64,000 bases of DNA from an uncultured Chloroflexia bacterium (lineage in GTDB: Bacteria > Chloroflexota > Anaerolineae > JAAYZQ01). The notes beneath the pieces are model-generated. The model searched no databases and was not told the DNA's origin. It saw nothing but the letters and a program-made list of their open reading frames with translations. The position numbers were made by a program, and so were the translations under genes. Each line of letters begins with the position of its first letter. Position 1 is the first letter of the stretch. Of the stretch, positions 17,234-58,531 are shown piece after piece. The stretch spans positions 704,001-768,000 of the forward strand of contig CAVOXA010000014.1 in assembly GCA_963700285.1 (NCBI GenBank), written 5' to 3'.

Positions 17234-17267
17234 AGCATGATCCAGCCTTCTAGGGTCTGAAGAACAA

Positions 17268-17554: not shown

Positions 17555-17690
17555 TGCTTCCTACTCCTCTTCCTTTTTTGACTATTGCTGGACGCACCGC
17601 TTGCACCGCAGATTGCGGTGACCTGCGCTCCCATTTCCTGTTGCTGCGTTAAAGCCCGCAGAGACTACTAGTCTTTCTTCCATGCTCTAG

Positions 17691-17760
17691 CATCATAGCA
17701 TATTGTCATAGTTTTGTCAAGTATTTGAAGAATTTTTTGCGTTAGAACTGCGTTAAACCT
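17691..17760 (-). promoter_or_regulatory. Sigma70 promoter with putative CarH operator (site A)
   Basis: Minus strand CAAATAC-TTGACA-17 nt-TATGAT with TG extension; TGACA repeated at 11-bp spacing; upstream TAACGCA direct repeat at 11 bp. Confidence 0.75.
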
Positions 17761-18478: not shown

Positions 18479-18516
18479 AAAGAGGTGATTCTGCCGAGAA
18501 GCAGAATCACCTCTTT
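18479..18516. terminator. Bidirectional intrinsic terminator
   Basis: AAAGAGGTGATTCTGC-cgagaa-GCAGAATCACCTCTTT, a perfect 16-bp stem between convergent genes. Confidence 0.8.
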
Positions 18517-18532
18517 AAAAGAAGGAGAAGAC

Positions 18533-19345
18533 CTAGTCTTTGATGCTGACCTCAGCCTGACGATTCCGGAGGAAAAAGCTTCCGGCTACCAAGGCCAGGC
18601 CCGCACCCAGGGCAGCCAGCAGCCAAGGGTTCGCGGTCTGACCACCAGTCGTCGGTAAGCTGGCTGGAGGAGCCGCGTCGTAGCTAGCATCTACGCTGGG
18701 CACCGCCGTCAGAGCTGGCTCACCACCGGCCAATCCCATGGCAAAGATGGTGTAAACATTCCCATCTTCTAGCATCACCCCAGGCACACTCAGGGCCACA
18801 GTTTCGGTCCCGGCCAGACGAGCTTCCAGATCATAGGTACCAGCGTCGACCGGCAGGTAATCGCCCGTGCCCTTGAATGGCACATTGGAGAAGAGTACAG
18901 GACCACCGTTCGCAACCGCGATGTCAACGGCTGGGGCATCGGGTGAGGCGTGGACAAAACGCACGTGAGCCTTGCCCGCTTCAGGGGCGCTGTTGTTGTC
19001 GATCAGGACCAGCGGCTCAATGCTCTCCAGCGTACCCACAGCGACGACCGTATAGTCGGTTTGAGCGGCCAGATCAAGGTCGGCATCGATGACAATCGGT
19101 TCCGTTGCGCCGGTAGGGGACACCTGGACGTTGTACGTACCAGCCTCGAGGGCGGCATAATCTGTGATACCCTTGAACGGGGCATTGCCAAATGCTACGC
19201 TGCCGTTAACCCAGACGTCGACTGCCGGGGCATCGGGTGAGGCGTGCACGACGCGCACGCGGGTTTCTTGACCCTGCGCGAAAGCACTAGTGGCCAGGAC
19301 CAGACTGAGTACCAAGACGGCGGATACTGCAAACAAGCGTTTCAT
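18533..19345 (-). CDS. DUF4397 domain surface protein with LPxTG-type sorting signal (paralog 1)
   Basis: Signal peptide; two RVVHASPDAPAVD repeats; C-terminal LPTTGG, hydrophobic helix and basic tail; GGAGG RBS. Confidence 0.85.
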   Translation of the reverse strand: MKRLFAVSAVLVLSLVLATSAFAQGQETRVRVVHASPDAPAVDVWVNGSVAFGNAPFKGITDYAALEAGTYNVQVSPTGATEPIVIDADLDLAAQTDYTVVAVGTLESIEPLVLIDNNSAPEAGKAHVRFVHASPDAPAVDIAVANGGPVLFSNVPFKGTGDYLPVDAGTYDLEARLAGTETVALSVPGVMLEDGNVYTIFAMGLAGGEPALTAVPSVDASYDAAPPASLPTTGGQTANPWLLAALGAGLALVAGSFFLRNRQAEVSIKD

Positions 19346-19386
19346 TTCTACCTCCAAGCAGATATGGTTTTTTGAAATTCTTGAGG

Positions 19387-19430
19387 CGAGTATAGCACAA
19401 CAAGATTATTTTGTCAAGTATTTGCACATA
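19387..19430 (-). promoter_or_regulatory. Sigma70 promoter with putative CarH operator (site B)
   Basis: Minus strand GCAAATAC-TTGACA-AAATAATCTTGTTGTGC-TATACT (17-nt spacer); same CAAATACTTGACAAAA core as sites A and D. Confidence 0.7.
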
Positions 19431-19627
19431 TTTCTTACAGCTTTCTAATGCTGTGGCAAGCTTAACTATCTAGTATCTGCAGAAATCAAATGATAGAGGA
19501 AGACTCTTGCTGATATCCCCCTGAGAACTGGCCTGCGAACAGCGCTACATCAGAGCCCCCCCTGGCTGCATCCTGCAACTTTGGGATCAAGGGGCGCGGC
19601 ACAGTGTTTTGTCTGGGTATGCCTTAG

Positions 19628-21874
19628 CTAGGAGGCCAGGGCCGCCTTGACACGCTCCGGCGTCATGGGCAGGCGCCGGAGCCGGACGCCTGTCAGAGCA
19701 AAAAGTGCATTGCCAATGGCAGGGGCAATCGGGCCGATGGATGGCTCACCAAGGCCTCGTGGTTTCCCATCGGGTGCATCAAGCAGGATCGTTTCCACAT
19801 CAGGCGCATCAGCCATTCTGATCAGCGGATAGCGGTCAAAGTTCCCCGCTTGCACCCGGCCATCCTTGACGGTGATCTCTTCCAAGAGCGCAGCGCTGGT
19901 TCCCATCACGATAGAGCCCTCGATCTGGGCCGCGGCACCATCAGGATTGATGGTGCGCCCGGCATCCACGGCAGCCACCACCTGGTGAACGCGAATCTGG
20001 CCCGAGTCCCGGTCCAGCGACACCTGGGCCACCTCCGCGACTACGGTGCCACCATCGTTGCTACAGGCAATGCCCTGCGCTCGACCCTCGGGCTGGCCTT
20101 CTCCCCAGCCGGCCCGTTCCGCGGCTGCTTTCAGGACAGCGCCCATGCGCTGTCCCAACGCATCCTCCGGCAAGTGCGCCAGGCGGAAGAGCAGAGGATC
20201 CACACCAGCCTCATGCGCCAGTTCATCGACAAAGCTCTCGAGGGCAAAGACATTGGCCATCAGACCCAGACCGCGCCAGGAACCGGTAGGGATCGGCATG
20301 GGCCGTCTCCAGGCTGTCGTGTCCCGGTGGGCGATATCATAGAGGATCTGGGCGCCGCGTGTGGAACCAAAATCGAAACCCAGCACCTTGCCAACCGGGC
20401 CGGGAAAGCCACCCAAAAGGGCATCTCCGCTGGCCTGCTCATGCCGCAGAGCGGCGATCCGCCCCTGACCGTCGAGGACAGCACTCAGTTGGTGGTGTGT
20501 GAGAGGGCGCACAAAACCATCGCGCATCTCCTCAGAACGATCCCAGCCAACATGTACGGGAGCGGCCACCGCCCTAGAGAGCCGGGCAGCCTCGACAGCA
20601 GGGCTGGGCACTGGCGCGAGTTCGATTTTTCTCCCAAAGCCTCCGCCCAGGTACATCGGGATGATCTCGATCTGCTCAGGCTCCAGGTCCAGGGCCGCGG
20701 CTACCTCCCGACGGGAGGTGATTTCGAACTGGGTGGAGGTCCACACCCGACCTCTTTCCGGACCCACGATGGCCAGGGCGGCCTGGGGCTCCATGGGGGC
20801 GTGCGTAGCCATGCCGCTGCGATACTCCGCCGTGATAGGTGTGCCGCGGCTCAGAAGGGAAGCTGCATCCCCCTCCCGCTGGATATTCACCCCGCCACGA
20901 CCACCAACAGTGACCTGCTCTTCCAGTTCTTCCTGCTGCCAAAGGTAACCCTGGTCCCATTCGACCTCCAGGGCATTGCGGGCTGCCCAGGCCTGGAGGC
21001 GCGACTCTGCCACCACGCCGGCAAAGCCGTCCTCGATCACGACCTCGATGACGCCGGGCATACTTGCTGCTTCGCCGGGCCGGGCTGACAGCATCTCCGC
21101 ACCTATCGTCGGCCGGTGGACGGCAGCTCCATAGAGCACCCCCTCGGCACGAGCGTCGTAGCCAAAGACGGCCTCGCCCGTAATCTTGCTGGGCAGGTCG
21201 ACGCGGGGCAGAGACTGGCCAATGTACCATTGCTCGCTTGCTGGCTTGAGCGGGACGTCTCCTTCTGGAACCTGCCACATTACATCCTTCCCTACTAGCT
21301 CCCCATAGGTCACACCGACCTGGGGATCAGAGATCAGCTCTATGGCGCCTTGCCGGGCCACCAGGTTTTCTAGAGGCTGGTTCAGCTTGCGTGCGGCCTC
21401 GGCGCGCAGCATTTCGCGCAGTGTAGCCGCCGCCTGGCGCAGCGGATCGTAGAGGGTTGTCACCGACATACTGCCGCTTGTGCCGCGAAAGCTCTCGTCG
21501 GCCTGGCTGGTGCTTGCGTGCCGGACCTCCAACTGATCCCAGGCGATCTCCAACTCATCGGCTGCGATCTGCGCCAGGGCGGTGTGAATGCCCTGCCCCA
21601 TCTCCGCCTTGGGCACATTGAGCAGGACACGACCTTCAGGATAGACCTCGAACCAGAGCAAGGGATCGAGGGTGCCCGAGGCAAAACCACCCGCATCCCC
21701 CTCGGTCAGCCCAGCCGCGGCTCGCCGCAGATGTGGCAAGCCCATGGGGATGCCCAGGGCTAGTGCGGCGCCAGTCGTCGCCATCCCAACCAAGAATCCA
21801 CGCCGGCTGATGTACCACTTGCGCTCGTCTTTGTCCGCAAGCTCACTGGTCTGCTGGCCCTGCCGATCGCTCAC
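19628..21874 (-). CDS. Xanthine dehydrogenase family molybdopterin subunit (IorB-like), Tat-exported
   Basis: ISRRGFL Tat motif; KAEMGQGIHT, GGGFGRK, WRGLG and GLGEP; GTG overlaps the stop of the 2Fe-2S gene. Confidence 0.9.
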   Translation of the reverse strand: MSDRQGQQTSELADKDERKWYISRRGFLVGMATTGAALALGIPMGLPHLRRAAAGLTEGDAGGFASGTLDPLLWFEVYPEGRVLLNVPKAEMGQGIHTALAQIAADELEIAWDQLEVRHASTSQADESFRGTSGSMSVTTLYDPLRQAAATLREMLRAEAARKLNQPLENLVARQGAIELISDPQVGVTYGELVGKDVMWQVPEGDVPLKPASEQWYIGQSLPRVDLPSKITGEAVFGYDARAEGVLYGAAVHRPTIGAEMLSARPGEAASMPGVIEVVIEDGFAGVVAESRLQAWAARNALEVEWDQGYLWQQEELEEQVTVGGRGGVNIQREGDAASLLSRGTPITAEYRSGMATHAPMEPQAALAIVGPERGRVWTSTQFEITSRREVAAALDLEPEQIEIIPMYLGGGFGRKIELAPVPSPAVEAARLSRAVAAPVHVGWDRSEEMRDGFVRPLTHHQLSAVLDGQGRIAALRHEQASGDALLGGFPGPVGKVLGFDFGSTRGAQILYDIAHRDTTAWRRPMPIPTGSWRGLGLMANVFALESFVDELAHEAGVDPLLFRLAHLPEDALGQRMGAVLKAAAERAGWGEGQPEGRAQGIACSNDGGTVVAEVAQVSLDRDSGQIRVHQVVAAVDAGRTINPDGAAAQIEGSIVMGTSAALLEEITVKDGRVQAGNFDRYPLIRMADAPDVETILLDAPDGKPRGLGEPSIGPIAPAIGNALFALTGVRLRRLPMTPERVKAALAS

Positions 21875-22362
21875 ATTGCACCCCCACTCGAGGCTGGTTC
21901 CTCCGCAGTTGTCATCTCGGCGGCCGCGCGACCAACCGCCCGCTTGATGCGGCCGTAGGCGCCACAACGGCAATAGTTGGCACTCATGCCCGCAACGACC
22001 TCCTCTTCTGTGGGATTCGGATTGCCTTCCAGCAGTGCGACTGCCCTCATCATCTGGCCGCTCATGCACCAACCGCACTGCTGTACCTGCTCATCCAGAA
22101 ATGCCTGCTGCACCGGATGAAGCTCCCCGTCGCTGGCCAATCCCTCGATGGTCCGGATGGCTTTGCCCTCGGCTGAGGACAGTGTGGTGATGCACGAGCG
22201 TACCACCTTGCCATCCAAGTGCACTTCGCAGGAACCGCAGATCCCCACACCGCATCCGAATTTGGTACCTGTCAGTCCCAACTCGTCGCGCAGAACCCAT
22301 AACAACGGGCGGTCAGGCTCCTTTTCTACTTGATAGGTAGTGCCATTGACCATAATTTCCAC
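21871..22362 (-). CDS. (2Fe-2S)-binding subunit (IorA/CoxS-like)
   Basis: GTKFGCGVGICGSC...SCI, QCGWCMSG and NYCRCG; AAGGGAGG RBS before GTG 22362. Confidence 0.9.
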   Translation of the reverse strand: MEIMVNGTTYQVEKEPDRPLLWVLRDELGLTGTKFGCGVGICGSCEVHLDGKVVRSCITTLSSAEGKAIRTIEGLASDGELHPVQQAFLDEQVQQCGWCMSGQMMRAVALLEGNPNPTEEEVVAGMSANYCRCGAYGRIKRAVGRAAAEMTTAEEPASSGGAM

Positions 22363-22418
22363 AGAACGCCCTCCCTTTTGGCGATACACGCCAGATGTAG
22401 GACTTTGGCCGCCTTCCA

Positions 22419-22550
22419 TCACAGAATGCCAGCGCTCACGGCGATACCCACACCGAGCAACAAGCCCACAAGAATGCCAGTCAGCGCGCCCAGCACAGAG
22501 CCCAGGCTCACACCTACGGCACGCTGCAAACATCCCCTGCCTTCTTCCAT
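22419..22550 (-). CDS. Small glycine-rich membrane protein (43 aa)
   Basis: MEEGRGCLQRAVGVSLGSVLGALTGILVGLLLGVGIAVSAGIL; GAGGAG RBS; GxxxG repeats. Confidence 0.5.
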   Translation of the reverse strand: MEEGRGCLQRAVGVSLGSVLGALTGILVGLLLGVGIAVSAGIL

Positions 22551-22719
22551 CGTATGCTCTCCTCGAGGCGCCGCCCAACGCAGCGATGATACCCGGCTCC
22601 CAGTCGTCCCATGCCCCCACCCATGGGCCCATGAGAACCAGGACACTTTGTCACCTAATCATCCTTTTTCCTACACCACTCTAGCAGTTCCGCCCGAGGA
22701 CAGGATTTGCCCATCGAAG

Positions 22720-23205
22720 CTAGTCGAGCCCATCTTGACCTTGATTGAGTTCGTCCAGCACAGCCAGGATCTCAGCATTCGGTGGAATGTCCGACATGGA
22801 GCCGCCATAGTGCACGTAACTTACCTGGCCCGACTTGTCAATGACCATCAGGGCCGGCATACGACCCCAACTCAGCAGCTTCACCTCCTGCCCATAGCGC
22901 TTTGCTACGGTGTGGGTCGGATCGGCCAGCCCTACGAAGGGTAGTTCCTCTTTTTGCCAGTAGTCCACAAAAGCCTTCTCGCTGTCAGGGCCTACGACTA
23001 CAACTTCAGCACCGCGCTCGACAAACTTCTGATAGTCTTGGCGCAACTGCGCCATGTGCCTACGGCAATACATTCACATGAACCCACGGGCGAACACCAG
23101 GACCACGTGCCTGTTCCTGTGATAGTCAGAGAGCGTCACGCTCCGGCCCCGCGTATCCTTCAGCGTAAAATCGGGCGGGGTAGTCTTCTCTCGAACTCTG
23201 GCCAT
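22720..23205 (-). CDS. AhpC/TSA (peroxiredoxin-like) selenoprotein with UxxC motif
   Basis: ATG 23205 (GGGAGG RBS) reads ...PDFTLKDTRGRSVTLSDY...VVLVFARGFM-TGA-MYCRRHMAQLR, in frame with ORF 22720-23073. The TGA (23074-23076) occupies the first Cys position of CxxC. Confidence 0.85.
23039..23054 (-). promoter_or_regulatory. Putative bacterial SECIS hairpin
   Basis: UGGCGC-AGUU-GCGCCA starts 19 nt after the in-frame UGA, with G at the second position of the apical loop. Confidence 0.6.
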
Positions 23206-23279
23206 GTTCAGTTTCCTCCCAACTCGCTAGGATGCCAAGGGTGGCCACGTGCCCTAGGGGCCTTGGCGCTGCCAGCTTA

Positions 23280-24461
23280 TCACGGACTCGGTCGCGCCTC
23301 CAGCATCACTTCAACGGCCTGTTCCACTCCAGCGCGCACAATCCCCAGCGTCACGAGCTGTCCGACTTTCTTCTCAGCCAGGTAGGTAATCAGATCGTCC
23401 ATGTCCCGGATGGCTTGGCCATCGAGCCTTACGATGATGTCACCTCCTGTGGAAGGAGAGGCATCTTCGGACTCGAGCTGCTTGTCAGCGCCACGCAAAC
23501 CCGCCTTGGCGGCTGGACCATCCGTGACAATACCTCCCAGGATCACACCTCGGTCGACGGACAACTCCAGGGCTTCGGCCAGACGCGGCGTCACGGACTG
23601 ACCCGTGATCCCCAACCACGGGTCCGAGTACAATCCGCTCGTGATGAGTTCCGGCACAACTCGCTTCACAGTATTCACCGGGACGGCAAAGCCGATCCCT
23701 GCATTGCTCCCGCTGGATGAGTAGATGAGCGTGTTTACGCCAATAACCTGGCCTCGAGAGTCCAATAGCGGTCCACCGGAGCTGCCGGGGTTGATGGCCG
23801 CGTCAGTCTGTATGAGCTTGGGCAGCGAAAACCCGCTATCCTGGCGCACGACACGCCCAAGGGCACTGACGATGCCTGTGGTCATGGTCTGCTCAAAACC
23901 AAAGGGGTTCCCGACGGCGATGGCCCTCTGCCCAACACGAAGCGAAGACGAATCTCCCAGTTGAACCGGCTTCAGGAGCCCATCGGCTGCGGGCACCTTG
24001 AGCACCGCCAGGTCGCTATCTGCATCGGTCCCTACGATCTCTGCTTCCACGATCGTGTCATCGGAAAAACGAACCAGGATCTGCTCTGCGTTCTCCACCA
24101 CATGGTTGTTAGTCACAACATGTCCTTCGGAGTCGAGTACAAAACCTGAGCCGCTGCCGCCCCCCCGCTGTGTCCTGACGGCGATATTCACGACCGAGGC
24201 GCCCACTCTCTCATAGAGCTGAATGAGCAATTGCTCCTCAGCGGCCGCCAAGCTCAACAGATCCGCCTCCAGCGGAGAAAGCCGGTCCACAGCCGGCGCG
24301 GAGGATACTTTCAGTATCTCGGGAACTGACCCTCTGTCAGCGTCCGCCGTACGAACAAATCGGGATTGAGTCGCCTCAAGGCCTGCAACTATGTCCCCGC
24401 CGAAGAGGACCAATACCAGAAGGCCTAGGACCCAGATGAACAGCCTTTCTCTTGATATCAT
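23280..24461 (-). CDS. HtrA/DegP-family (S1C) serine protease with PDZ domain
   Basis: [35 protein letters not shown]-terminal PDZ and N-terminal TM; GGAGG RBS. Confidence 0.9.
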
Positions 24462-24560
24462 GCTTCCTCCTATCGTTGCACCTGGAAAAGGTCTTTCGCC
24501 GTGGCTCAATCTGGGCGAGGGACCTTCTTGACCAGATGTGAATTGGTGATTCACCTAGGA

Positions 24561-24630
24561 TTCATGATATCATATTGCACAACTTTTGTCAACTATTTGG
24601 CTGGATTTTTCTGTTAAGACTGCATAAGAA
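24561..24630 (-). promoter_or_regulatory. Sigma70 promoter with putative CarH operator (site C)
   Basis: Minus strand CCAAATAG-TTGACA-AAAGTTGTGCAATATGA-TATCAT (17-nt spacer); upstream TCTTATGCAGTCTTAAC repeat. Confidence 0.72.
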
Positions 24631-33702: not shown

Positions 33703-33804
33703 CGTATCCCAGAAGACTATCCGTTCGCCTACGAGGGTAAATCCCACGGGCTTGTCCTTGACCTGCACGGATTCCATCATTGCGTAGCGTTGTTTGGCAA
33801 TTAT
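33703..33804 (-). pseudogene. 5' remnant of a Rieske oxygenase paralog
   Basis: IIAKQRYAMMESVQVKDKPVGFTLVGERIVFWDT aligns with MIPNQWYVLMESRQVKETPVGVTRMGEKMVFWRDT of the 24673-25671 product; ATA stands where ATG would be. Confidence 0.6.
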
Positions 33805-33901
33805 TTGCTCATCTTCATTTGGTAAGGTTCCGACACGACGGACCGCAGTCCAATTACTCAGTCTAGGGAGGTCACCGATTAGCGTTGCTCCAAGGCCATG
33901 G

Positions 33902-41835: not shown

Positions 41836-42630
41836 TTACTGTCGGGTAGCCCCGGCGTTGCGGCGCAGGGAAAGTCCAGCGACGACCAGGGCAAGACCAA
41901 CACCCAACACAGCCAGCAACCACAGATTGGTGACCTCACCGCCGGTCTCTGGCATCGTAGCGGGATAGCTGGCATCTACGCTGGGCACAGCCTGCAGGGC
42001 AGGCTCACCACCGGCCAAGCCCATGGCGAACACCGTGTAGACCGTGCCCGCCTCAAGGGCGACGCCCGGCACGCTCAGGGCAACGGTCTCTGTTCCGGCC
42101 AGGCGAGCTTCAAGGTCGTACGTTCCAGCATCCACCGGTAGATAGTCACCGACGCCCTTGAACTCAACGTTGGCAAAGAGTACGGGCCCACCGTTGGCCA
42201 CGGCAATATCAACAGCCGGAGCATCGGGCGAGGCGTGGACAAAGCGCACGTGCGCTTTGCCGGCAGCCGGAGCGCTGTTGTTGTCGACAAGAACCAGGGG
42301 CTCAATGTTCTCCAACATGCCCACAGCCACCACCGTGTAGTCGGTCTGCGTCTCGAGTGGCAGGTCAGCCTCGATTACGACCGGCTCTGTGGCACCAGTG
42401 GGCGTCACCTGAACATTGTAAGTGGCGGGCTCAAGTTTTGCATAGTCAGTGATTCCGGTGAAGGGAGCGTTGCTAAAGGCAACAGCGCCATCCACCCACA
42501 CATCGACCGCCGGTGCGTCGGGTGAGGCATGCACAACCCGCACACGAGCCTCATGACCATCAGCAAAGGCGCTACTGGCCAAGGCGAGACTGAGAACTAG
42601 GACCGCGGATACGACTAACAGACGTTTCAT
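41836..42630 (-). CDS. DUF4397 domain surface protein with sortase-like signal (paralog 2)
   Basis: Colinear with and very similar to 18533-19345; C-terminal MPETGG, TM helix and RR. Confidence 0.85.
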   Translation of the reverse strand: MKRLLVVSAVLVLSLALASSAFADGHEARVRVVHASPDAPAVDVWVDGAVAFSNAPFTGITDYAKLEPATYNVQVTPTGATEPVVIEADLPLETQTDYTVVAVGMLENIEPLVLVDNNSAPAAGKAHVRFVHASPDAPAVDIAVANGGPVLFANVEFKGVGDYLPVDAGTYDLEARLAGTETVALSVPGVALEAGTVYTVFAMGLAGGEPALQAVPSVDASYPATMPETGGEVTNLWLLAVLGVGLALVVAGLSLRRNAGATRQ

Positions 42631-43096: not shown

Positions 43097-44518
43097 TTAC
43101 TGTATGTTGTTGAACATAAGAGGCAGATACAGCATGGCTTTTTCCGGCACCAGGAATCCTGGCTTCCCACTCGGCAGGATAAAGAGGGCAGCCGGTTGGT
43201 TCCCAGCATCTCCCACGGCAAAGGCAGACAGGATGTCACCATCCCCCAACCTGATAGGCAGCGGATCGATCAACGTCGTGCTGCCATCAGCCGTTGTGAT
43301 TTTGAAATCATACATCCCCTCCGGCAGTTCCGAGTAAGGGGCGATGGTGTCATACGGCACATCATCGAGGATAACGGTCCCGTCCTGCAACCGCACGTCG
43401 GCCTTGGTGTCCGCAGCATCAGTGGCAAAGGGCGCCAGGTGACCGATTCGGACCTTGCCCTTCCCGGCTGACGGCGCCGCATTGTCATCCTCGAGCAACT
43501 CAAGGCCCAGATCCCAGCCATTCGCACCGCCTTTGGCGATGGCCACATAGTCCTTGGTATGGTTGAGATTGACCGTGGCGCTGATGGCCGCTGTGGTACT
43601 GCCCGCTGGGAAGACTTCTACCAGATGGTCCACACCGGCTTCCACAGGCAAGTACGCGGTCGAATCCGCAAACTCAAAGCCGTCCAGCACCTCTGTGCCG
43701 TCCAGCTCTATGGACACCGCCGTGTCAGGATCCATGGCAAACGGTGCCAGGTGCGCGACCTGTAGCGATGCGGCCAGCGGCAGCAGGCTGCCTTCCTCCC
43801 CGCTCGGCAGGGCAAAGGCCCCCACCGGCTGGTTCCCACCATCACCTACTGCAAACACAGAGACGATGTCACCAGCACTCAGTGTCACCGGCATCGGATC
43901 GATCAGAGTCGTACTTCCGTCGGCGGTCGTGATCTTCAGGTCGTATGTCCCGGCATCCAGCTCAAGGTAATCGGCGACGGCCCCATAGGGTACATCGTCC
44001 AACAGGACTGTCCCATCCTGCAGCCGCACATCCGCCTTGGTATCCGCTTCCAGGGCGGCAAAGGGTGCAAGGTGGCCGATGCGCACCTTTGCTTTTCCAC
44101 CTGGTGGTGCGGCGTTGTTATCCTCGAGTAGCTTCAGACCGAGGTCCCAACCATTACCACCCCCGATCGCAATAGCCGTGTACTCCATATCCTCCATCAA
44201 GTTCACGGTTGCGCTAATGGCTGCTGTAGTACTGCCGGCTGGGAACACCTCGATCAGATGGTCAACGCCAGCCTCCAATTTGAGATACTCTGTCGAATCG
44301 GCAAACTCAAAGTCGTTTAGCACAGCCGTACCGTCCACCTCAATAGTCACGGCCGTATCTGGATCTTGGGCAAACGGCGCCAGATGCACGACGGCGAGTT
44401 TCGCCATCGTGGCCGATGGCGCCACCTGTTCTGTATCTTCCTGGGCAATAGCCATGATGCCCAGAACAACCACCAATGCCAGCACTAGGGCCAGCACCAA
44501 AGCAAGTCTTTTCATCAT
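43097..44518 (-). CDS. Tandem-duplicated DUF4397 surface protein with Chloroflexi-type C-terminal tail
   Basis: Signal peptide; two ~210-aa internal repeats (HLAPFA..PDTAV...KVRIGHLAPFA); ends MLYLPLMFNNIQ. Confidence 0.8.
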   Translation of the reverse strand: MMKRLALVLALVLALVVVLGIMAIAQEDTEQVAPSATMAKLAVVHLAPFAQDPDTAVTIEVDGTAVLNDFEFADSTEYLKLEAGVDHLIEVFPAGSTTAAISATVNLMEDMEYTAIAIGGGNGWDLGLKLLEDNNAAPPGGKAKVRIGHLAPFAALEADTKADVRLQDGTVLLDDVPYGAVADYLELDAGTYDLKITTADGSTTLIDPMPVTLSAGDIVSVFAVGDGGNQPVGAFALPSGEEGSLLPLAASLQVAHLAPFAMDPDTAVSIELDGTEVLDGFEFADSTAYLPVEAGVDHLVEVFPAGSTTAAISATVNLNHTKDYVAIAKGGANGWDLGLELLEDDNAAPSAGKGKVRIGHLAPFATDAADTKADVRLQDGTVILDDVPYDTIAPYSELPEGMYDFKITTADGSTTLIDPLPIRLGDGDILSAFAVGDAGNQPAALFILPSGKPGFLVPEKAMLYLPLMFNNIQ

Positions 44519-48170: not shown

Positions 48171-49399
48171 GCCCCACTCCTGTCGTCAGACCCCTGCTCA
48201 AATTGGATAGGCAGCGATACGTAAAAGGTAGAGCCCTTGTCCACCTCGCTCTCTACCCAGATCCTTCCCCGGTGTCCCGCGACAATCCGCCGCGCTATGG
48301 CCAGCCCCAATCCGGTACTCCTTTCTCCCTCTGTCCCCCTCACGCTGGTTCTGCCAAACCACTTGAACAATCTGTCGATCTCTTTGGCTGGAATACCCTG
48401 CCCCTCATCTCTGACCGAGACCACTACCTGATCTGCCATTCGCTCCAGACCTACCTCCACCTGGCTTCCCTGGTGGGAGAACTTGACCGCATTGGAAATG
48501 AGGTTGTTCAAGACCTGCTCTATCTTGACAGGATCTAGCAGCATCAAAGGTAGTGATTCCTCATGTCGAAAAGAGAGACGAATCTGCTTGCTGTCCGCCA
48601 GAATGCTATTCAATACCAGATTGCGGTCGATCAGAGCGACCAGGTCTGTCGGTTCAAGCGAGAGGACCAGCCGGCCAGACTCGATGGCAGACACGTCCAG
48701 CAGGTCTTCGACCATCTGCAGCATGAAGCCGCCATAGGACTCGATGATTGATAGGAACTCAATCTGTTCCTCCTCTAGCCGGGACGAGGCCCTGTCCAGC
48801 AAAAACCGGGCACAAGACTGAACGACAAAGAGTGGGTTGCGCAAGTCATGAGCGGCCATACCCAGGAACTCATCCTTGAGCTTGATGAGCTTCTCCAACT
48901 CGGCGTTACTCTTGGCTAGCTCTCTTTGGAGCGTGACCAGCTCATTGTTCAGGCGGCTCAGTTCATCGTAGAGCGCGGCGGTTCGTCCAGTGTGGAGGCG
49001 CTCCATTTCAGTGCGTTCCTTGACCGCTTGCCGCAGGGCTGACGTCTGTTCTCCACTGATCTGCGCAAGCTCATCACAGAACCGGCCCAACGCGCTGGAA
49101 CTTGTCGCCGCTATGATCAGGAGCTTGCTGCCAGCGACGACTCCCGTAAAGTGCAACACCTGAACGCCACCGTTGTCAGAGACAGTTAATTCCCAGTCAA
49201 AGGCCGTGCCCCGGGCTCGCACGACGGCCAGAAAGCTAAGTGCCTTGCCAAGGCCAGGTGGATCGATGAGCTGAGTGAAAGGACGGCCCAGTCGCGCCTT
49301 GCTGGCCATCGCCAGGTCGTCGTGTAGCACCTGCTCAAGCAATCCCTGGGCATCGCATAGCAGTGCAAGGCCGGGAACCTCTGCGATTGAGTTCATCAT
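48167..49399 (-). CDS. Cytoplasmic sensor histidine kinase (HisKA-HATPase) with coiled-coil linker
   Basis: LYDELSRLNNELVTLQREL coiled coil; AAHDLRNPL, NLISNAVKF, DEGQG and GLGLAI; ATGA overlaps on both sides. Confidence 0.9.
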   Translation of the reverse strand: MMNSIAEVPGLALLCDAQGLLEQVLHDDLAMASKARLGRPFTQLIDPPGLGKALSFLAVVRARGTAFDWELTVSDNGGVQVLHFTGVVAGSKLLIIAATSSSALGRFCDELAQISGEQTSALRQAVKERTEMERLHTGRTAALYDELSRLNNELVTLQRELAKSNAELEKLIKLKDEFLGMAAHDLRNPLFVVQSCARFLLDRASSRLEEEQIEFLSIIESYGGFMLQMVEDLLDVSAIESGRLVLSLEPTDLVALIDRNLVLNSILADSKQIRLSFRHEESLPLMLLDPVKIEQVLNNLISNAVKFSHQGSQVEVGLERMADQVVVSVRDEGQGIPAKEIDRLFKWFGRTSVRGTEGERSTGLGLAIARRIVAGHRGRIWVESEVDKGSTFYVSLPIQFEQGSDDRSGA

Positions 49400-50460
49400 T
49401 CCTCATCCACCATGCACATGGCCAGTGTTACAGCTTCCTGGGCATCGGGGGCATAGCCATGGGCGCCAATGGTCCTCCACAGCCCCGGCGAAAGGTTGAA
49501 AGGATAGCCGCCTACCAGGACCCGCACCATCTTGGTCGCCTCCGCGCTCTGCACTCGAGCAACAAGGTCGGCCACAGCGCTGACATGAAACGTCATCGTA
49601 GCTGAAATGGCCAGAATCTCTGCATCGCGTTCTTTGAGTGTGCGCAAGATGCTATCCGCCGGAGTGTTGGCCCCGAGGTAGTAGGCGTCCCATCCCTCTA
49701 TCTCAAAAAAGTCGGCCACCATCCGCGCCCCAAGCTCATGCAGCTCACCGCCCACACAGGTAACGACAGCCCGGTGGCCAATCCTCTCGGCGGAAAAAAC
49801 GTGGGGATAAAGCTGGGACATGATGAGCTGCGTGGCTGCCGTACAGTAGTGCTCTTGGGCCACTGTAACCTGGTTCATCTGCCACAGGCGCCCGATCTCG
49901 CGCTGCGCGCGCTGAAAAACGTAGAGATATAGGTCCTTGATCCCGGCGCCTGCCTGAACTGCGTCGAGGACGAGTGCACTGGCCACATGCCGTTCCCCCT
50001 GCAGAAGAAGACGGAGATAGTCCCGTGCCAGATCCACCAGTGGGGCATCTGGTTCCAGATGGGTTGGCAGAGTGGGGGAGGTCTTTCGTAGCTTGTCAAG
50101 GGCTGCAGCACAATAATCGTCCGTGATGGCACTCAAATCCGGGGGTAGATGTTGTCCAAGTACATCACGCATACATTGGAGGGTAGCCACCAAGACCTCA
50201 TCGGGAAAACCAAGGCCGGCAAAGAGTACTTTGGTCCAGGCTGAGTAGTTGGCAAAAAGATTAGGATCGCAGACGGACAGCGCTTGCGCCAAGTAGGTCA
50301 GGTGATAGCCCACATCGCGGACCGATTTCTCTCTCCCTTCCTCCCCGTAGCGCGCCCAGGGCTCTGCCTGGAGGGCATACTGGAGGTCAACAACCTCCTT
50401 CGCCAGGCTTGTCAATTGCTCATCAATGATCTGGCTCGCTTTCGAAGCATCTTTGCTCAT
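49396..50460 (-). CDS. Globin/phycobiliprotein-like domain + CarH-type cobalamin-binding protein (no DNA-binding domain)
   Basis: W-x9-EH (WQMNQVTVAQEH), E-x-H-x2-G (ELHELG), YLGANTP and VLVGG; helical N-domain KSVRDVGYHLTYLAQAL...LFANYSAW. Confidence 0.85.
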   Translation of the reverse strand: MSKDASKASQIIDEQLTSLAKEVVDLQYALQAEPWARYGEEGREKSVRDVGYHLTYLAQALSVCDPNLFANYSAWTKVLFAGLGFPDEVLVATLQCMRDVLGQHLPPDLSAITDDYCAAALDKLRKTSPTLPTHLEPDAPLVDLARDYLRLLLQGERHVASALVLDAVQAGAGIKDLYLYVFQRAQREIGRLWQMNQVTVAQEHYCTAATQLIMSQLYPHVFSAERIGHRAVVTCVGGELHELGARMVADFFEIEGWDAYYLGANTPADSILRTLKERDAEILAISATMTFHVSAVADLVARVQSAEATKMVRVLVGGYPFNLSPGLWRTIGAHGYAPDAQEAVTLAMCMVDEE

Positions 50461-51724: not shown

Positions 51725-53353
51725 CTATTCTCCTAGATGGTCTTCTAGAGTTCCTCGAGACCCGCAATGCCACAATCTGAACCTGCTATCCAAAGTCTCC
51801 TGGGCCTCCCGGTTAACTGGTCCAGAGCATGCTGGGATCAGCGGAAAAAAGCTACTGTTCCGCTCTTCGGCCATGACCGAGCTCGCCACCCGCATGCCAC
51901 CCAGCGCGACCGCCGGCACGGACTGGCCGGGAAAGATGCTGTCACCCACCATCCACAAACTGGGTGCCAGCCGGGGTCCCCAAGCACGAAAGAGGTTGGT
52001 CTGAGGAAAGCCACCCACCCAGCCCCAGGCCCGCCGCGTGAAGCGCTGGAAGGTAACCGGGGTACCGGGTAGGATGAGGTCTACCGCCTCCCGAAGGTTG
52101 GGCAAAGCTACCTCGGCAGCATCCAGAACTCGCTCGACGAAGGCCTGCTTTCTGATCTCGTAGGCGGTCTATCGTGTTCGAATAGATCCCACCAGCCATC
52201 CAACTCTGTGTGTGTGCTTATGGTAAGCGCCCGCCGCCCATCTGGCGCCCTACCAGCGTCCCAGGCTGGACTCAACGAGAGAAAGACCGTGTTGCCATTG
52301 CCAAATGGCTCCCGAAGCACGACCTGGTGGTGGAGGGCAGACTGCGTCGGCACAACCGAGGCATCCAGGCCCACATAGACCATGTAGGCCCCCCATACTT
52401 CTCGCGGCTTTGGGCGGCAGCTCCTTCAGCCGGTGGGGCGCATTGTCTCCCAACAGTCGCGCTATGTTCCAGGGGGTCAGGTTAAAGACGACCGTCTCAG
52501 CCGGAAAGGACGCCCCCTTGTTGGTCTCCACGGCCACAGACCGACCTTTGCTGCTCAGAGCGATTCGCGTCGCCTGCTGGCGAAAATGGACCTGCCCGCC
52601 ATAGCGGCGCACAGCATCCACCAGCTCGCCAGCAATGGCCCCCATGCCGCCCTCGGCGTGCGCAGCTCCCCTCCGAGGTAGATCGAGTGCGGAAGCGCCA
52701 TAGAGGGCATTGGTGTAGCGGCTGGTTGTCTGCGAGGCGATCAGCAACTGGCCATCGACAAAGTAGCGCAGTCGCTCTGAGCGCGCACTGACTGGTCCCT
52801 GCAGGTGGGAAGCCACCGGCCGTAGAGCATCCAGAGCGAGACCCGGTTTGAGCCTTTCTCGTAGATCTTTCCCCAGCCAACCGAAAGCTTGGCCGGCAAG
52901 GTGGGCTGCCTCGCCATAGGCTTGGGGAGGCCAGTCAGGCAGACGCAGGGCGAGGTCCCACATCGCGTCAGAAGTCCGCTCCTGCCAGCGCCAGAATGCC
53001 TCTGATTCAGGACCAAAAGCGCCGCGACGCTCAGCCCAGCGCTGCTTGCCCCGCCACCTCTTCACACAGCTACCATCCGGCAGATGCGAAACCATGACCG
53101 GATCCGCTGGCCGGACGGGCCAGGCTTCGATACGCAGAGCATCACCGACCAAGTCCATGGGGCCGCCTGGGTAGAAGCCGGCTGCCAGCGTTGCGCCAGC
53201 GTCAAAGCGGTAGCCCTGATGGTAAAATGTCCCGGCACAGCCCCCTGCATAGACGTGGGCTTCAAGGACCGTGACATTCAGTCCGGCTCGCGCCAGCAGG
53301 GCTGCTGTCGTTAGTCCGCCGACTCCGGCGCCAACGACCACAACGCGGTTCAT
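51725..53353 (-). CDS. CrtI/CrtD-family FAD-dependent carotenoid desaturase/isomerase (frameshifted)
   Basis: [16 protein letters not shown]...[25 protein letters not shown]...GWVGG and VGDSIFPGQ; ORFs 52250-53353, 52108-52383 and 51725-52105. Confidence 0.8.
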
Positions 53354-53380
53354 CCTTCTTCTCCTGACCTGGTGACAACC

Positions 53381-54130
53381 CTAGTTCATGTGGGCGCCGG
53401 CAAAGGCCCCGATTTCGGTCTTGTCCGTAATCAGGCTATATATCTTGCCGTCCCGCATCTGGATGATCTTGTCGACAAACTTGACCATCCGCAGGTCGTG
53501 GGTCACCATGATACCCGCCAGATTCTCGGCGTGGATCAGATCGGCAAAGGTACCAACCACCTGAAAGGCGCGCTGGGTATCCAGGCTGGCCGTGGGCTCG
53601 TCGGCCAGCACGATGTTGGGCCTGTGGACCAACGCTCGGGCGATGGCCACTCGCTGCTGCTGCCCGCCGGAAAGCTGAGATGGCAGGTTCTTCAGCCTGT
53701 CACCCAGGCCAAGTTGATCGAGCAAATCCGAAGCTCTCTCCTTGTTGGTCCTGGTGTATTGCTTGTTCAACTGCAGCATCAGTTCGACGTTCTCCCGCAC
53801 TGAAAGGTAGGGAACCAGGTTGTTGTCCTGAAAGGTGAACCCTACCTTCTCGCGGCGGAACTTTGTTCGCTGGCGATCGCTCATGCCAGACAGCTCCTCA
53901 CCCCCGATAAGAATCCGGCCCTCGGTCGGCGCCAGCAGGCCAGCCAACATGGCCAGCATGGTCGTCTTTCCAGAACCACTGGGACCCACCAAAGCCACAA
54001 ACTCGCCAGGGCAGATTTGCAGGGAAACTTCGTCCACGGCTTTGATGATACTATCCTCCACTTCGTAGGTCTTGGTGACAGACTGTGCCTCAAGTACCGG
54101 TGTCATTTTTCCATTTCCATCCATGTCCAA
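53381..54130 (-). CDS. ABC transporter ATP-binding protein (HrtA/LolD-like)
   Basis: [34 protein letters not shown] and VTHD. Confidence 0.9.
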
Positions 54131-54136
54131 TGCTCC

Positions 54137-55369
54137 TTATGATGCCAACCCAAGTGCGGTCAGGGGCTCTACCCTCAACAGAACCACCAGAGAGATCATG
54201 CCGGCCAGGGGCCCGATGATCAACAGCGAAACAATGGCCACCAAAGCAGACTCGGGTGTGAAGATGATGGGTACAGTTCCTGGGAGGCCCAGCGAAAGGG
54301 CAAAGGTTCCCAAGACACCGAGTGCTACGCCCAAGATGGTCGTATAGATGATCTGCAGGACAAAGGCCACGGAAATGGTCAGCGTCGCTGCGCCGATGGC
54401 CTTGAGCATGCCGATTTGAGCCACCTTCTGCAACGTCTGGATTTGGAAGAATCCACCCAACACCAGCACGCCGATGAGCAGCGTAAAGATGCGGATGGTG
54501 TTCAGCGTACTCTGCTGCTCGGCATAACCCGGTGTGGCCTCATAGGCCGTCTTGAGGTCAGCGGACTCGACCCTTTTGACGCCGTTGTCCAGACGCTCAG
54601 CCATGATCTCCAGTTCGGCTGGGTCATCCAGTTGCACGGCAGCCACGTTCAGGACATATTCCGCGTTACCCTCGGTCGGTCCAGTCCCCGGCTTGACCCG
54701 ATCCCAGGTCACATAGGGCACAAAGATCGAGGGCTGCAAGAAATTCTGCTGGCTGTCACTGATGCCGGCTACAGTCAGGTCATAGAACTCTTCGTCTGTC
54801 CCCTGCACCGACTTAATGGTGAACTCGTCACCCACTTTCAGTCCGGTGCGCAGGGCGACATTGCTGCCGATGACCGCCTCTTTGCTCCGTTTGCTCTTGA
54901 GGCCGCGGCCCTGCAGCGCCGCCGGCTCGCCCGGCTTGCCGGGTTCTACACCAATGAGGGATACACCCAAGGGCTCTTGGCCCTCATCCATCATGAGCGA
55001 AGCCCGGCTGAAACCGATCAGGCCCACATCTCGAACACCCTCGATCCTTCGGATCTCCTTCAGCTTTGACCGTCCCATTCGGCTTGTCGAGGTAGACAGG
55101 TCAGTGTTCTCTTGAAACAACAGCAGGTCCGCATCAAGCTTCGCCAAATACTCGATGTTGCCCGAACCCAAACCCTCGGCCAGCCCGTCGATAAAGAGCA
55201 CGAGGGTTGTGATCAGGGCGATCACCAGGGCCACCATGAAGAATCTTCCCTTGTTGCGCCAAAACTCCTTGAAGGCCAAATAGACGGGCAGTGGAGCGCT
55301 CAGGCTCCGCGCTCTCTCTTCGACCTTGGTCATTGGGCGAGCGAACGTTTTCTCAGCTTGCAAGTTCAT
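54137..55369 (-). CDS. FtsX-family ABC permease (HrtB-like)
   Basis: LAFKEFWRNKGRF, GLAEGL, FFQIQTLQK..QIGMLKAIG and VEPLTALG. Confidence 0.85.
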   Translation of the reverse strand: MNLQAEKTFARPMTKVEERARSLSAPLPVYLAFKEFWRNKGRFFMVALVIALITTLVLFIDGLAEGLGSGNIEYLAKLDADLLLFQENTDLSTSTSRMGRSKLKEIRRIEGVRDVGLIGFSRASLMMDEGQEPLGVSLIGVEPGKPGEPAALQGRGLKSKRSKEAVIGSNVALRTGLKVGDEFTIKSVQGTDEEFYDLTVAGISDSQQNFLQPSIFVPYVTWDRVKPGTGPTEGNAEYVLNVAAVQLDDPAELEIMAERLDNGVKRVESADLKTAYEATPGYAEQQSTLNTIRIFTLLIGVLVLGGFFQIQTLQKVAQIGMLKAIGAATLTISVAFVLQIIYTTILGVALGVLGTFALSLGLPGTVPIIFTPESALVAIVSLLIIGPLAGMISLVVLLRVEPLTALGLAS

Positions 55370-55859
55370 TTCCCCTATCAATAGAGTCTCTCCAGGTCTG
55401 TGATCCCGCGCCTGACTGAGGCGCCTCCAGAATCTGTCTTGTTTTCCAACCGCGATAGACGAAGAGAAGTGGCAGGCCAAGCCACATTGTTAGCCCTACC
55501 GGCCCCCACACTAGGTGTCGCCTCAGCTTGGCCTCGATTTCGTCTACAACGCTTGTCGCGCCTTCATTCTCCTGCACAAAGGTGTGTCGATGGGTCCAGG
55601 CATCAAAGGGACCAGCCACCTGCTGGTCTGCGAAGCCTGAGATAGTCACGTCTTCCACGCGGGCGACCCAGCGGACGGGGACAGGCCCCAGCCACACCGT
55701 GAAGGCCATCTCGTCGCCGTCAGCCATCTGCTCCGGCGCGTAATGCAGACTTGTGGGCATCATCGGCGGCGTGATGGCGCCCAGACTGGAAGCCTGGGTA
55801 TGAAATCTGGCGACGCTCGCCTGCCGCGCCTGTACCCGGAAGGAGTGGCGGTACTTCAC
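55353..55859 (-). CDS. SRPBCC (START-fold) family protein
   Basis: LGAITPP, PVRWVA and FADQQVAGPFDAWTHRHTF. Confidence 0.8.
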   Translation of the reverse strand: MKYRHSFRVQARQASVARFHTQASSLGAITPPMMPTSLHYAPEQMADGDEMAFTVWLGPVPVRWVARVEDVTISGFADQQVAGPFDAWTHRHTFVQENEGATSVVDEIEAKLRRHLVWGPVGLTMWLGLPLLFVYRGWKTRQILEAPQSGAGSQTWRDSIDRGNELAS

Positions 55860-56782
55860 TTCAGCAGGTTCCTCAGCGCACTCTCTGCATCGGGAAAATG
55901 GAAGGTAAACCCCATCTCCAGCAGACGCTGGGGAAGGCCCAGCTGACCCTCCAATACCACGCTGGACACGTCACCAACAGCCGCCCGCATGGCAAAGCCT
56001 GGCACAGGGATCAGGGATGGCCTTCCCAGGACGCGGCCCATGGCTTTCCCAAATGCAGCATTGGTGATGGGCACCGGGGCGACGAGATTGAACGGCCCCC
56101 TGGCCGCTTCGTGCTCGATCAGAAAGCGGATAGCCCGAACCTCGTCCTGCAAATGAATCCAGGGCAACCATTGCTTCCCACTACCCAGCGGACCTCCAAC
56201 AAAGAGGCGATAGGGCAGCAGCCACCGGGGCAGCGCTCCCCCCTCGGTATCGAGCACAGCCCCACTCCGTGCGATAACCCGCCGCATGCCCATTGCTTCT
56301 ACAGCCTCCGTCGAGGGCTCCCACTCGTTGGCAGCAAGATCTGCCAGGAAGCCAGTCCCCGGTGGCGCGTCCTCAGTGACCTCGTCATTGCCCGTGTTGC
56401 CATAGTAGCCAATGCCTGAGGCCTGAACGACGACCCGAGGTTTCTCCTTGGCGGCCTCAGCCGCCTCTACCACGGCGCGTCCGGCCCAGACCCGGCTATC
56501 GCGAATAACCCTCTTTCTCTCTGCCGTCCATCTGCTGGGAAAAAAGCCAGGGCCAGCCAGGTTCGAGCCGGCCAGGTTGACGATGGCGCCGGCGCCGTCA
56601 GCCAGATGCTCCCAGCCTTTGGCAGTACGTGCATCCCAGCCAGCGACCTGGACGCCGTCTGGCAGGCCAGATTCTCGTTCTGGGGAGCGAGTCAAGACCA
56701 CGACCTGGTGTCCATCCACAACAAGATTCGCAGCAAGCGCCCGGCCAATGAGGCCAGTACCGCCTGTTATGATCACCCGCAT
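55856..56782 (-). CDS. TIGR01777-family NAD(P)-dependent epimerase/oxidoreductase
   Basis: ITGGTGLIG, VNLAG, RW....K..IRDSRV, GGPLGSGKQWLPWIH and GPFNLVAP. Confidence 0.88.
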   Translation of the reverse strand: MRVIITGGTGLIGRALAANLVVDGHQVVVLTRSPERESGLPDGVQVAGWDARTAKGWEHLADGAGAIVNLAGSNLAGPGFFPSRWTAERKRVIRDSRVWAGRAVVEAAEAAKEKPRVVVQASGIGYYGNTGNDEVTEDAPPGTGFLADLAANEWEPSTEAVEAMGMRRVIARSGAVLDTEGGALPRWLLPYRLFVGGPLGSGKQWLPWIHLQDEVRAIRFLIEHEAARGPFNLVAPVPITNAAFGKAMGRVLGRPSLIPVPGFAMRAAVGDVSSVVLEGQLGLPQRLLEMGFTFHFPDAESALRNLLK

Positions 56783-58131
56783 GCTAAATTCTCCTCGTTT
56801 CCTCTACCTAATCCGTTCTCGTATATCACTGTGCTCAGCCATTCCAGGACAGGCTCCGCCCGTCCATTGAGGTTCTGGCTGGCTGCCTGGTGGTAGCATC
56901 CCAAATACCTGATCAATGCCTCGTCCGACAGATAGTGGTTGCTTAGCAGGCCCCTTAGCCAGTCAAGATCCGTGCTGAGAAAATCCATATCCCCCAAGGC
57001 CAGGGCGGCATCGATGTTGCTGGCAAGCTCCCGGGTTGCAACAGCAAGGTGGCGAGGCTCAATCTCCACCGGGCCCAGCCTTCGCGCCAAATCGGCCTCA
57101 ATCTGCCCCCGTCGCTCCTCAAAGTGATCCCTGGCAATTGGAAACGCCTCTGGAAGGGCCACAGTTCGAGCTACTGGATGAGGAGCAGCCATCAGTACTT
57201 CCACGACATCTGGGGCTGAAGGCAGACGCTCACCAAGAAAATGACCTGGAATCCGAGCGCGCGATGCCGGCAGCAGATTGAAGATCAGGCCCCCGTAAGC
57301 CAGCGGCACACCCTCCGCCTGCAGAAACTGGGCTGCCTCGAGCAGGGACGCCGCGCTGGTGAGTCGCTGAGCGGCCATCACCACCAAGTGAGGGCTCTTC
57401 ATGGTCAGGGTCGTTTCCAGTCGCTCTACCGGCACGTTCGCGCCCAGGTAGATGACGTCCCATCCCCTGCGCCGCAAGAGAAAAGTCAGCAAGAGCAGGC
57501 CGAATACGTGCTGCTCCTGAGGTGGGCAGGCGATGAGGATCCGGCCTGAACGGGTCGGAGGCGGAGAGGCCATGATCAGAGCCTCTAACCTTCGATTGGC
57601 CAGCGCCGAGCAAAAGTGCTCCTGTTGAACCGTAGCCTCGCCACGATACCATTTGTCGCCGATCTGCGACATAGCGGCCTGGAGCAGCTCAAGAGCCACC
57701 GTCTCTGGCGAATAGAGAGCAAATGCCTGGGCCAGGGCCTGTTCCGACCGCTGTTCGTCATAGGCCAGGCAGGCCGAGATCCAGTCTTCACGCAATTCGA
57801 TCAGCGTCGCCCCCAGAGCCGGAGGCGCGTGAGACGGCACTGGAAGCAGGCCGGCACTTGCCGGGGCGGCCAGCGGATCCTGGCCCTCCGCCTCGATCTG
57901 CCGCCACAGATCTACCGCCCGCGCGATGCTGAGGCCTTCCTGCTGGCGGGCTGTGAGCCATTTGAGCGTTTCAATGTCGTACCGTGTATAGAGTCGATGG
58001 CCGCCACTGCTGCGGTGGGGTGTGGGCAGGCCGTAGCGCCGCTCCCAGGCACGCAATGTATCCGGCTTGAGGCCGGTCTGCTGCACCACCGCTTTCAAGT
58101 TGAAAAAGGGCCCTTCGCTGCTGTTCGTCAC
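56773..58131 (-). CDS. carH: CarH/LitR-type AdoB12-dependent MerR repressor with extra C-terminal helical domain
   Basis: MerR HTH (DTLRAWERRYGLP..GGHRLY), W-x9-EH (WYRGEATVQQEH), EQHVFG and YLGANVP; ~130-aa C-terminal extension. Confidence 0.85.
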   Translation of the reverse strand: MTNSSEGPFFNLKAVVQQTGLKPDTLRAWERRYGLPTPHRSSGGHRLYTRYDIETLKWLTARQQEGLSIARAVDLWRQIEAEGQDPLAAPASAGLLPVPSHAPPALGATLIELREDWISACLAYDEQRSEQALAQAFALYSPETVALELLQAAMSQIGDKWYRGEATVQQEHFCSALANRRLEALIMASPPPTRSGRILIACPPQEQHVFGLLLLTFLLRRRGWDVIYLGANVPVERLETTLTMKSPHLVVMAAQRLTSAASLLEAAQFLQAEGVPLAYGGLIFNLLPASRARIPGHFLGERLPSAPDVVEVLMAAPHPVARTVALPEAFPIARDHFEERRGQIEADLARRLGPVEIEPRHLAVATRELASNIDAALALGDMDFLSTDLDWLRGLLSNHYLSDEALIRYLGCYHQAASQNLNGRAEPVLEWLSTVIYENGLGRGNEENLACG

Positions 58132-58185: not shown

Positions 58186-58256
58186 GCATTGTAGCACACT
58201 GTCACAGTTTTGTCAAGTATTTGGCCAGGATTCCGGGCTTAAAACCGCGTTAAGAT
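58186..58256 (-). promoter_or_regulatory. Sigma70 promoter with putative CarH operator (site D, autoregulatory)
   Basis: CCAAATAC-TTGACA-AAACTGTGACAGTGTGC-TACAAT (17-nt spacer); TGACA at 11-bp spacing; upstream TTAAC..TTAAG at 11 bp. Confidence 0.78.
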
Positions 58257-58415
58257 TCGACACAAGGCCAACATGAGGATGGCCAGTTGCCAAAGGGCTT
58301 CAATCATCAGGGAAATAGCCTGGGGCGTCTATGCCGGAATGGAATGACCGCCGGATCCCCACCCGGGGCATTTGACCCGGAATCAAAAAGGTGATACAAT
58401 CAACTATCACAATTG

Positions 58416-58516
58416 ACTGAAGCTGGGGGAGCCTGGGCGGCCAGGCTGAGAGGGCGATGGTTCTTGTCGCCGACCCCTTGAACCTGACCTGGGTAATGCC
58501 GGCGTAGGAAAGCGAA
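58416..58516 (+). ncRNA. TPP riboswitch (THI-box)
   Basis: GGGG...GCTGAGA...GACCCCTTGAACCTGACCTGGGTAATGCCGGCGTAGGAA, immediately upstream of thiamine genes. Confidence 0.93.
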
Positions 58517-58531
58517 CGAACCCACCAATGC

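Follow-up and report, generated by a model that had tools for sequence, protein, structure and literature searches.

We have analyzed the gene for a MerR-B12-photoglobin regulator in a 64,000-nucleotide stretch of Anaerolineae DNA (the window). The protein is a member of a published architecture class combining MerR-HTH, B12 and photoglobin domains, and the opposite domain order of a neighboring B12 sensor is not new. The preliminary description of the window had noted a CarH-type repressor with an extra C-terminal globin, which is confirmed, and had read the tail as a bilin domain adding red-light or tetrapyrrole sensing. For that headline our added result is negative: the bilin-binding Asp and the distal residue of photoglobins are replaced familywide, by Ala365 and Leu362 in the regulator, and none of 201 genomes of the class matches haem oxygenase. 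A bilin or red-light function of this globin, as read from sequence, is doubtful. We consider it probable that the protein is a green-light, AdoCbl-dependent repressor made up of a MerR domain and a full photocobilin-type module, in which the globin would act as a pigment-less clamp rather than as a bilin antenna. Green-only sensing with a structural globin is the most likely reading because the family has lost the bilin Asp and its hosts have no recognizable biliverdin source. What we observe directly is the order of the domains and their fold, the B12 signature, the absence of the bilin Asp, conserved repeats at 11-bp spacing that overlap the -35 box, and linkage to photolyase and carotenoid genes.

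Photoglobins were described in a computational study (Schneider et al. 2022, PMC8717448), which includes MerR family regulators such as RPI92725.1, names MerR-HTH as a fusion partner of photoglobin plus both B12 domains, reports Chloroflexi hosts, and predicts bilin binding via Asp49 and a distal Cys, Ser or Thr. Both orders of photoglobin and B12 domains have been published (PMC8717448 section 3.4; PMC10979010 section 9), and two photocobilins were characterized experimentally by Zhang et al. 2024 (PMC10979010), in whose main text the word "MerR" is absent. No experimental study of the regulator family was found in the open-access literature, which misses most subscription papers.

Domain layout, tail and distribution

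The ORF at 56773-58131 (minus strand) encodes 452 aa, as the preliminary description had stated in setting the protein against a canonical CarH of about 290 aa; the TtCarH chains used for comparison have 290-305 aa. Among the 120 best homologues 119 are 427-460 aa long, and of the 150 top representatives at 50% identity, 145 carry the tail. As judged by homologue lengths, the long form is a family trait. Pfam assigns MerR_1 (residues 11-75), B12-binding_2 (114-185) and B12-binding (196-296), with no match over residues ~320-452 (Table 1). The best solved relative by sequence is T. thermophilus CarH (E 4e-30), and the protein scores 138.9 bits against the NCBIfam CarH equivalog NF052513, below its cut-off of 400.

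Table 1. Features of the regulator, its predicted operators and its neighbors, in window coordinates.
Feature	Position	Strand	Basis
MerR-B12-photoglobin regulator gene	56773..58131	minus	ORF, Pfam, homologue lengths, AlphaFold2 model superposition
MerR-type DNA-binding domain, residues ~8-81	57889..58110	minus	Pfam MerR_1 E 7e-14; alignment to the DNA-binding domains of TtCarH and 2JML
Four-helix B12 cap, residues ~110-187, G158-x-x-W161, E171-H172, Tyr162 at TtCarH His132	57571..57804	minus	Pfam, alignment
Rossmann B12-binding domain, residues ~195-316, E206-x-H208, G230-x3-P234	57184..57549	minus	Pfam, alignment
C-terminal photoglobin domain, residues ~329-438	56818..57147	minus	Model vs 8J2W, profile vs 8J2Y, hhalign vs neighbor globin
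Ala365 codon, position of SasPcob bilin-binding Asp270	57037..57039	minus	26 residues before conserved Trp, as Asp270/Trp296
Trp391 codon, equivalent of corrin-contacting SasPcob Trp296	56959..56961	minus	118/120, 74/77, 133/145 homologues
Own predicted promoter and operator, TTGACA 58211-58216, TACAAT 17 bp later	58188..58227	minus	TnnACA-type repeat search, site matrix
Predicted operator/promoter upstream of photolyase 15779-17233	17688..17742	minus	Site matrix
Predicted operator/promoter upstream of DUF4397 gene 18533-19357, top genome score	19385..19439	minus	Site matrix
Predicted operator/promoter upstream of HtrA-like protease 23280-24554	24560..24614	minus	Site matrix
Downstream co-directional genes: TIGR01777 oxidoreductase, 168-aa protein, ABC permease and ATPase, frameshifted CrtD-like desaturase	52250..56782	minus	ORFs, Pfam
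Second sensor: photoglobin residues 1-128 (S46-x-R-D49, W75 intact), then B12 module	49396..50460	minus	Pfam, alignment

An AlphaFold2 model built from a 75-sequence alignment has a mean pLDDT of 88.8 and places five main helices at 329-438. Model residues 108-441 superpose on residues 7-341 of the photocobilin SasPcob (8J2W; Z 28.6, rmsd 2.9 Å, 315 aligned) and the model also matches AbPcob (8J2Y, Z 27.1), whereas CarH chains match over 108-318 only, with a lower Z of about 23. In agreement with this superposition, Foldseek gives a TM-score by target of 0.83 for 8J2Y, and the alignment of the regulator family profile with 8J2Y spans the globin, reaching profile position 411.

The preliminary description had also held that the tail resembles the N-domain of the second B12 sensor in the window, 49396-50460, and the peptides it quoted are found in both proteins. 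Pairwise BLASTP aligns the two domains at 26% identity over 46 aa (E 0.002), and profile-profile alignment (hhalign) gives E 1.4e-5, compared with 0.37 and 0.19 for helical-bundle controls; a wider profile reaches E 1.9e-7 at 93.7% probability, and the N-domain directly matches the tail of a relative (G071) at E 9.3e-5. Based on the model superposition and the profile-profile matches, the tail is a photoglobin homologous to the neighbor's N-domain, and the two sensors bear homologous domains in opposite order, as had been proposed. A single-sequence model of the isolated domain was poor (pLDDT 60.9), with no Foldseek match at E <= 0.001 and only generic helical matches in a wide VIA search (best Z 8.5). 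In the ESM Atlas the best score was 0.85, and a Phycobilisome-bearing cluster at 0.76 is taken as a lead only. Homodimer prediction for residues 105-442 scored 0.00, which counts neither for nor against.

The named relatives come from Anaerolineae and allied Chloroflexota. A CarH-like match is present in 78 of 201 genomes of the class, 52 with the long form and 26 with short or partial forms only, a tally that rests on match range and tail checks; outside the class, match range indicates the long form in 2 of 54 matching genomes. A quick tree of B12 domains divides the long forms between two clades: one, which is supported, has 51 rows, including three with a frameshift or truncation, and the other has 9. 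The protein is a common Anaerolineae-type regulator (52/201 genomes). Two homologues, P0242 (573 aa) and P0262 (510 aa), have further C-terminal extensions with no Pfam match there.

Conservation is lowest in the globin (column mean 0.36 vs 0.54-0.70 in the other domains), one close relative (L019) stops before it, and a two-part CarH serves in the 26 genomes of the class sample; these observations would suit a globin left over from a photocobilin ancestor and no longer needed, in a protein acting like a two-part CarH. Against this reading, the globin is kept across a deep clade, and of 81 rows, from the window and 80 genome loci, 77 have it at full length and two more have it in the next frame; Leu377 (137/145), Trp391 (133/145) and Tyr413 (124/145) are also conserved among distant representatives. 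We regard the relic reading as the least likely of those considered.

B12 module, globin pocket and pigment supply

Light-sensing B12 modules have the signature elements GxxH, GxxW, EH, a lower His and GxxxP (PMC11796333). G158, W161, E171, H172, H208 and P234 are each present in 120/120 homologues and G230 in 117/120; H208 is, by alignment, the lower cobalt ligand. The glycine of GxxH is absent from the regulator (Gln205), Gly being found in 15/120 close homologues and 76/150 representatives. In TtCarH, the bis-His light state needs His132 and oxygen, and the dimer needs Arg176-Asp201 (PMC10442372); these three residues correspond to Tyr162, Gln207 and Asn232. His occupies the 132 position in 3/120 close homologues, and in 2/57 long forms vs 10/21 short forms, counts in which kin are not independent; many short-form homologues also lack His132 or the Arg176-Asp201 residues. 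The unkept Arg176-Asp201 pair and Gln205 count against the green-light repressor reading that we prefer.

In SasPcob the light state is water-ligated and forms without large domain movement, and the globin touches both B12 subdomains and shields the corrin edge (PMC10979010). Since His132 is absent and SasPcob reaches its light state in this way, we infer a photocobilin-type light state for the regulator. By analogy, the globin would pack on both B12 subdomains with Trp391 shielding the corrin edge, and light would produce a water-ligated cobalamin with little domain movement, not the bis-His state of CarH.

The same structure shows how a bilin is held: Asp270 of SasPcob binds three biliverdin pyrrole rings, and Trp296 touches ring D and the corrin (PMC10979010). 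Ala365 is placed at Asp270 by sequence spacing (26 residues to the Trp), not by atomic superposition. At this position 112 of 120 close homologues have Ala and none has Asp; Asp is likewise found in 0 of the 77 globin-bearing rows and in 1 of 145 distant representatives. The residues that take its place are Ala, Ile, Val or Gly, all small or aliphatic. In AbDPcob, exchange of this Asp for His is enough to lower biliverdin occupancy to about 20% (PMC10979010), in favor of the pigment-less reading. A register shift restoring a conserved Asp was rejected, no position from 361 to 370 having Asp in more than 14/145 representatives, and an alternative hhalign register, off by one, is likewise without a conserved acid. 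The distal site, Cys or Ser in photoglobins, is Leu362 (Cys 0/145, Ser 3/145), and the CXRD/CXQD chromophore motif position reads L-A-V-A. In the family of the neighbor 49396-50460, Asp49 and Trp75 are each present in 121/121 sequences, with Ser46 at the distal site. Of the MerR-B12-bilin three-domain repressor put forward in the preliminary description, the MerR-B12-globin layout is borne out by model and profiles, and bilin binding is not supported. The conservation of Trp391 (118/120 close homologues, 74/77 locus rows, 133/145 distant representatives) fits a bilin or a non-bilin reading, because Trp296 of SasPcob touches both the corrin and ring D.

Haem oxygenase (PF01126) is matched in 0/201 genomes of the class and in 8/301 genomes of the phylum, none of these with the long form; as those eight matched, the search is able to detect the enzyme. 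Bilin reductase above cut-off is found in 0/201 class genomes. The source genome of the window (89% complete) has no match to PF01126, HemS or PF14518, one sub-cut-off HutW-like match and one weak ABM match; a cobalamin adenosyltransferase is present. Absence of haem oxygenase is not a decisive test of binder versus non-binder, since 13 of these 201 PF01126-free genomes, the source genome included, encode photoglobins with the Asp (motif checked in 9 loci). The second sensor is itself such a case, its S-x-R-D bilin motif being intact although the genome has no match to haem oxygenase. In four genomes of one genus (G210:C63, G222:C247, G233:C5, G293:C35), a frame of 433-441 aa that matches haem oxygenase and one of 707-722 aa with a B12 module lie about 5-7 kb apart; the two may make up a complete photoglobin system with its own bilin supply.

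These data bear on two further readings. In one, biliverdin, which might be scavenged, is bound in the globin and red-light excitation is handed on to AdoCbl, giving a green-plus-red repressor. The fold and arrangement are those of SasPcob and the Trp296 equivalent is conserved; moreover, AbPcob/AbDPcob, in which His replaces the Asp, still responds to red light at a biliverdin occupancy of about 20% (PMC10979010), and the persistence of Asp-type photoglobins without haem oxygenase means that a non-PF01126 bilin supply may exist. Given Asp counts of 0/120, 0/77 and 1/145, the near-absence of distal Cys or Ser, and the null searches for haem oxygenase and bilin reductase, we judge this reading unlikely. 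In the other, which we hold to be similarly improbable, the pocket is re-lined for a more hydrophobic ligand (porphyrin, isoprenoid or lipid), and light and metabolite are integrated. The exchange of Asp for Ala, Ile, Val or Gly next to a conserved Asn, retention of the globin in 52/201 genomes, fatty acid binding by related non-haem globins (PMC8717448), and the lipid and carotenoid enzymes among the linked genes all accord with it; the low conservation of the globin relative to the other domains and the variability of pocket-side residues in divergent members do not. The idea of a natural DNA-binding photocobilin with a pocket re-lined for a non-biliverdin ligand or a scavenged bilin, that is, a two-input, His132-independent B12 light switch of Anaerolineae, is one that we advance only tentatively. 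The pigment-less clamp, which we prefer, has points against it too: the red response of AbDPcob without the Asp, the Asp-type photoglobins in 13/201 genomes, and the conservation of Asn366 (80/145) and Asp/Glu388 (115/145), polar residues with no assigned role.

Predicted operators and neighboring genes

CarH operators consist of 11-bp TnnACA-type repeats over the -35 box (PMC9304148). Upstream of the regulator, imperfect repeats of this type lie 11 bp before and after the -35 box. Across 80 related loci, 30 upstream regions contain tandem TnnACA at 11 bp, where 200 base shuffles gave 0.8 on average and at most 4; a spacing of 11 was counted 33 times, the next highest count being 12, at spacing 23. 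The TTGACA -35 box is itself one of the repeats, and its partner 11 bp upstream has T 91%, C 93%, A 93% and A 96% in 55 sites, percentages that are partly circular because the sites were chosen by motif.

A matrix built without the window's own site finds 28 genome sites above 17 bits, part of which may simply be promoters, vs 0 in a 1.85-Mb strand after shuffling. Four strong sites lie in the window (minus strand, starts 17742, 19439, 24614 and 58238), and they presumably correspond to the operators A-D of the preliminary description. Three of the four photolyase copies in the genome are downstream of a predicted operator, and further predicted sites precede other photolyase and DUF4397 copies. 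Judging from these sites, the likely targets of the regulator are operators with 11-bp repeats that precede its own operon, photolyases and further genes; as an AdoCbl-dependent repressor it would bind the predicted operator through its MerR domain in the dark.

The photolyase copies are 53-73% identical to the window copy, and one is frameshifted. Photolyases and DUF4397 genes form repeated light-response modules (window 15779-24614, G000:C14:684000-704000 and C14:155000-161200), most of them behind the same operator-promoter. DUF4397 proteins are encoded in the window at 18533-19357, 41836-42630 and 43097-44518, and as two copies in the genome immediately follow predicted operators with top scores, this uncharacterized domain may have a light-induced role. 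A weaker operator-like site at 33768-33822 (minus strand, 19.9 bits) has no clear gene behind it.

Among the 80 related loci, for which counts are lower bounds given many short contigs, at least 31 have a photolyase, 30 CrtB (28 divergent), 18 a CrtD-like gene and 11 lycopene cyclase; at least 49 have a photolyase or carotenoid gene of any kind. PF00494 is matched in 29 of the 52 long-form genomes. A carotenoid regulon in the source genome was rejected, as CrtB has no match by Pfam or tblastn in this 89% complete assembly. The CrtD-like desaturase of the window (51725-53353, minus strand) is split by a frameshift, as is a second copy (C14:158228-159669); the splits could reflect sequencing error or decay. 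Divergent from the regulator, at the place of crtB in many relatives, a TPP riboswitch (58415-58527, plus strand, 70.4 bits) precedes thiamine pyrophosphokinase.

The gene 49396-50460, which has a weak Pfam Phycobilisome match, precedes two histidine kinases and a response regulator. A conserved functional pairing of the two B12 sensors was rejected: a long branch (2.97) separates their B12 domains in the tree, and, as the neighbor's globin occurs in only 1 of the 80 loci, the pairing in the window is local.

Relation to known systems

The regulator links two characterized types of B12 photoreceptor, CarH with its DNA output and the photocobilins with their globin partner. Its predicted operator, together with two controls provided by nature (the short CarH forms of the class and a photoglobin 6 kb away that has the Asp), makes it a system in which the role of a photoglobin lacking the bilin-binding Asp, and the possibility of a red-sensitive CarH, can be examined directly. 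If an Asp-free pocket does couple red light to AdoCbl, the protein would offer optogenetics a CarH repressor that already responds to red light and whose operator is predicted. The analysis is also a caution that a photoglobin fusion should not be annotated as a bilin sensor by default.

CarH/LitR proteins (TtCarH 5C8D-F; B. megaterium and Myxococcales; PMC9304148, PMC10442372) share with the regulator the MerR domain and B12 module with W-x9-EH and ExH, and the 11-bp TnnACA repeats over -35 and linkage to carotenoid and photolyase genes. In contrast to them, the regulator has an extra 120-aa globin, lacks His132 and Arg176-Asp201, falls under the NF052513 cut-off, and resides in a genome with no CrtB match.

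The photocobilins SasPcob (8J2W, 8J2X) and AbPcob/AbDPcob (8J2Y) have the same order of B12 cap, Rossmann domain and C-terminal globin, the same packing as predicted for the regulator, and the Trp296 kept as Trp391, and they too lack a His132-type upper ligand. The regulator differs in its N-terminal MerR DNA-binding domain and predicted operators, in having Ala where SasPcob has Asp270 and AbPcob His, and in its host class without a haem oxygenase match; AbPcob is counted as a photocobilin despite lacking an Asp270 equivalent.

With the photoglobin family (PMC8717448) the regulator shares a globin fold related to phycocyanin, as indicated by hhalign and by the full model on 8J2W to residue 441. 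MerR fusions are known there, and may include the present family. The regulator departs from the pattern described in that paper in having Ala365 and Leu362 at the positions of the conserved Asp49 and the distal Cys/Ser/Thr. The same branch of the globin superfamily also contains BBAG globins and phycobiliproteins (Rockwell et al. 2023, PMC10151467), but their CXRD/CXQD motif is L-A-V-A in the regulator, which is also without linkage to haem oxygenase or bilin reductase.
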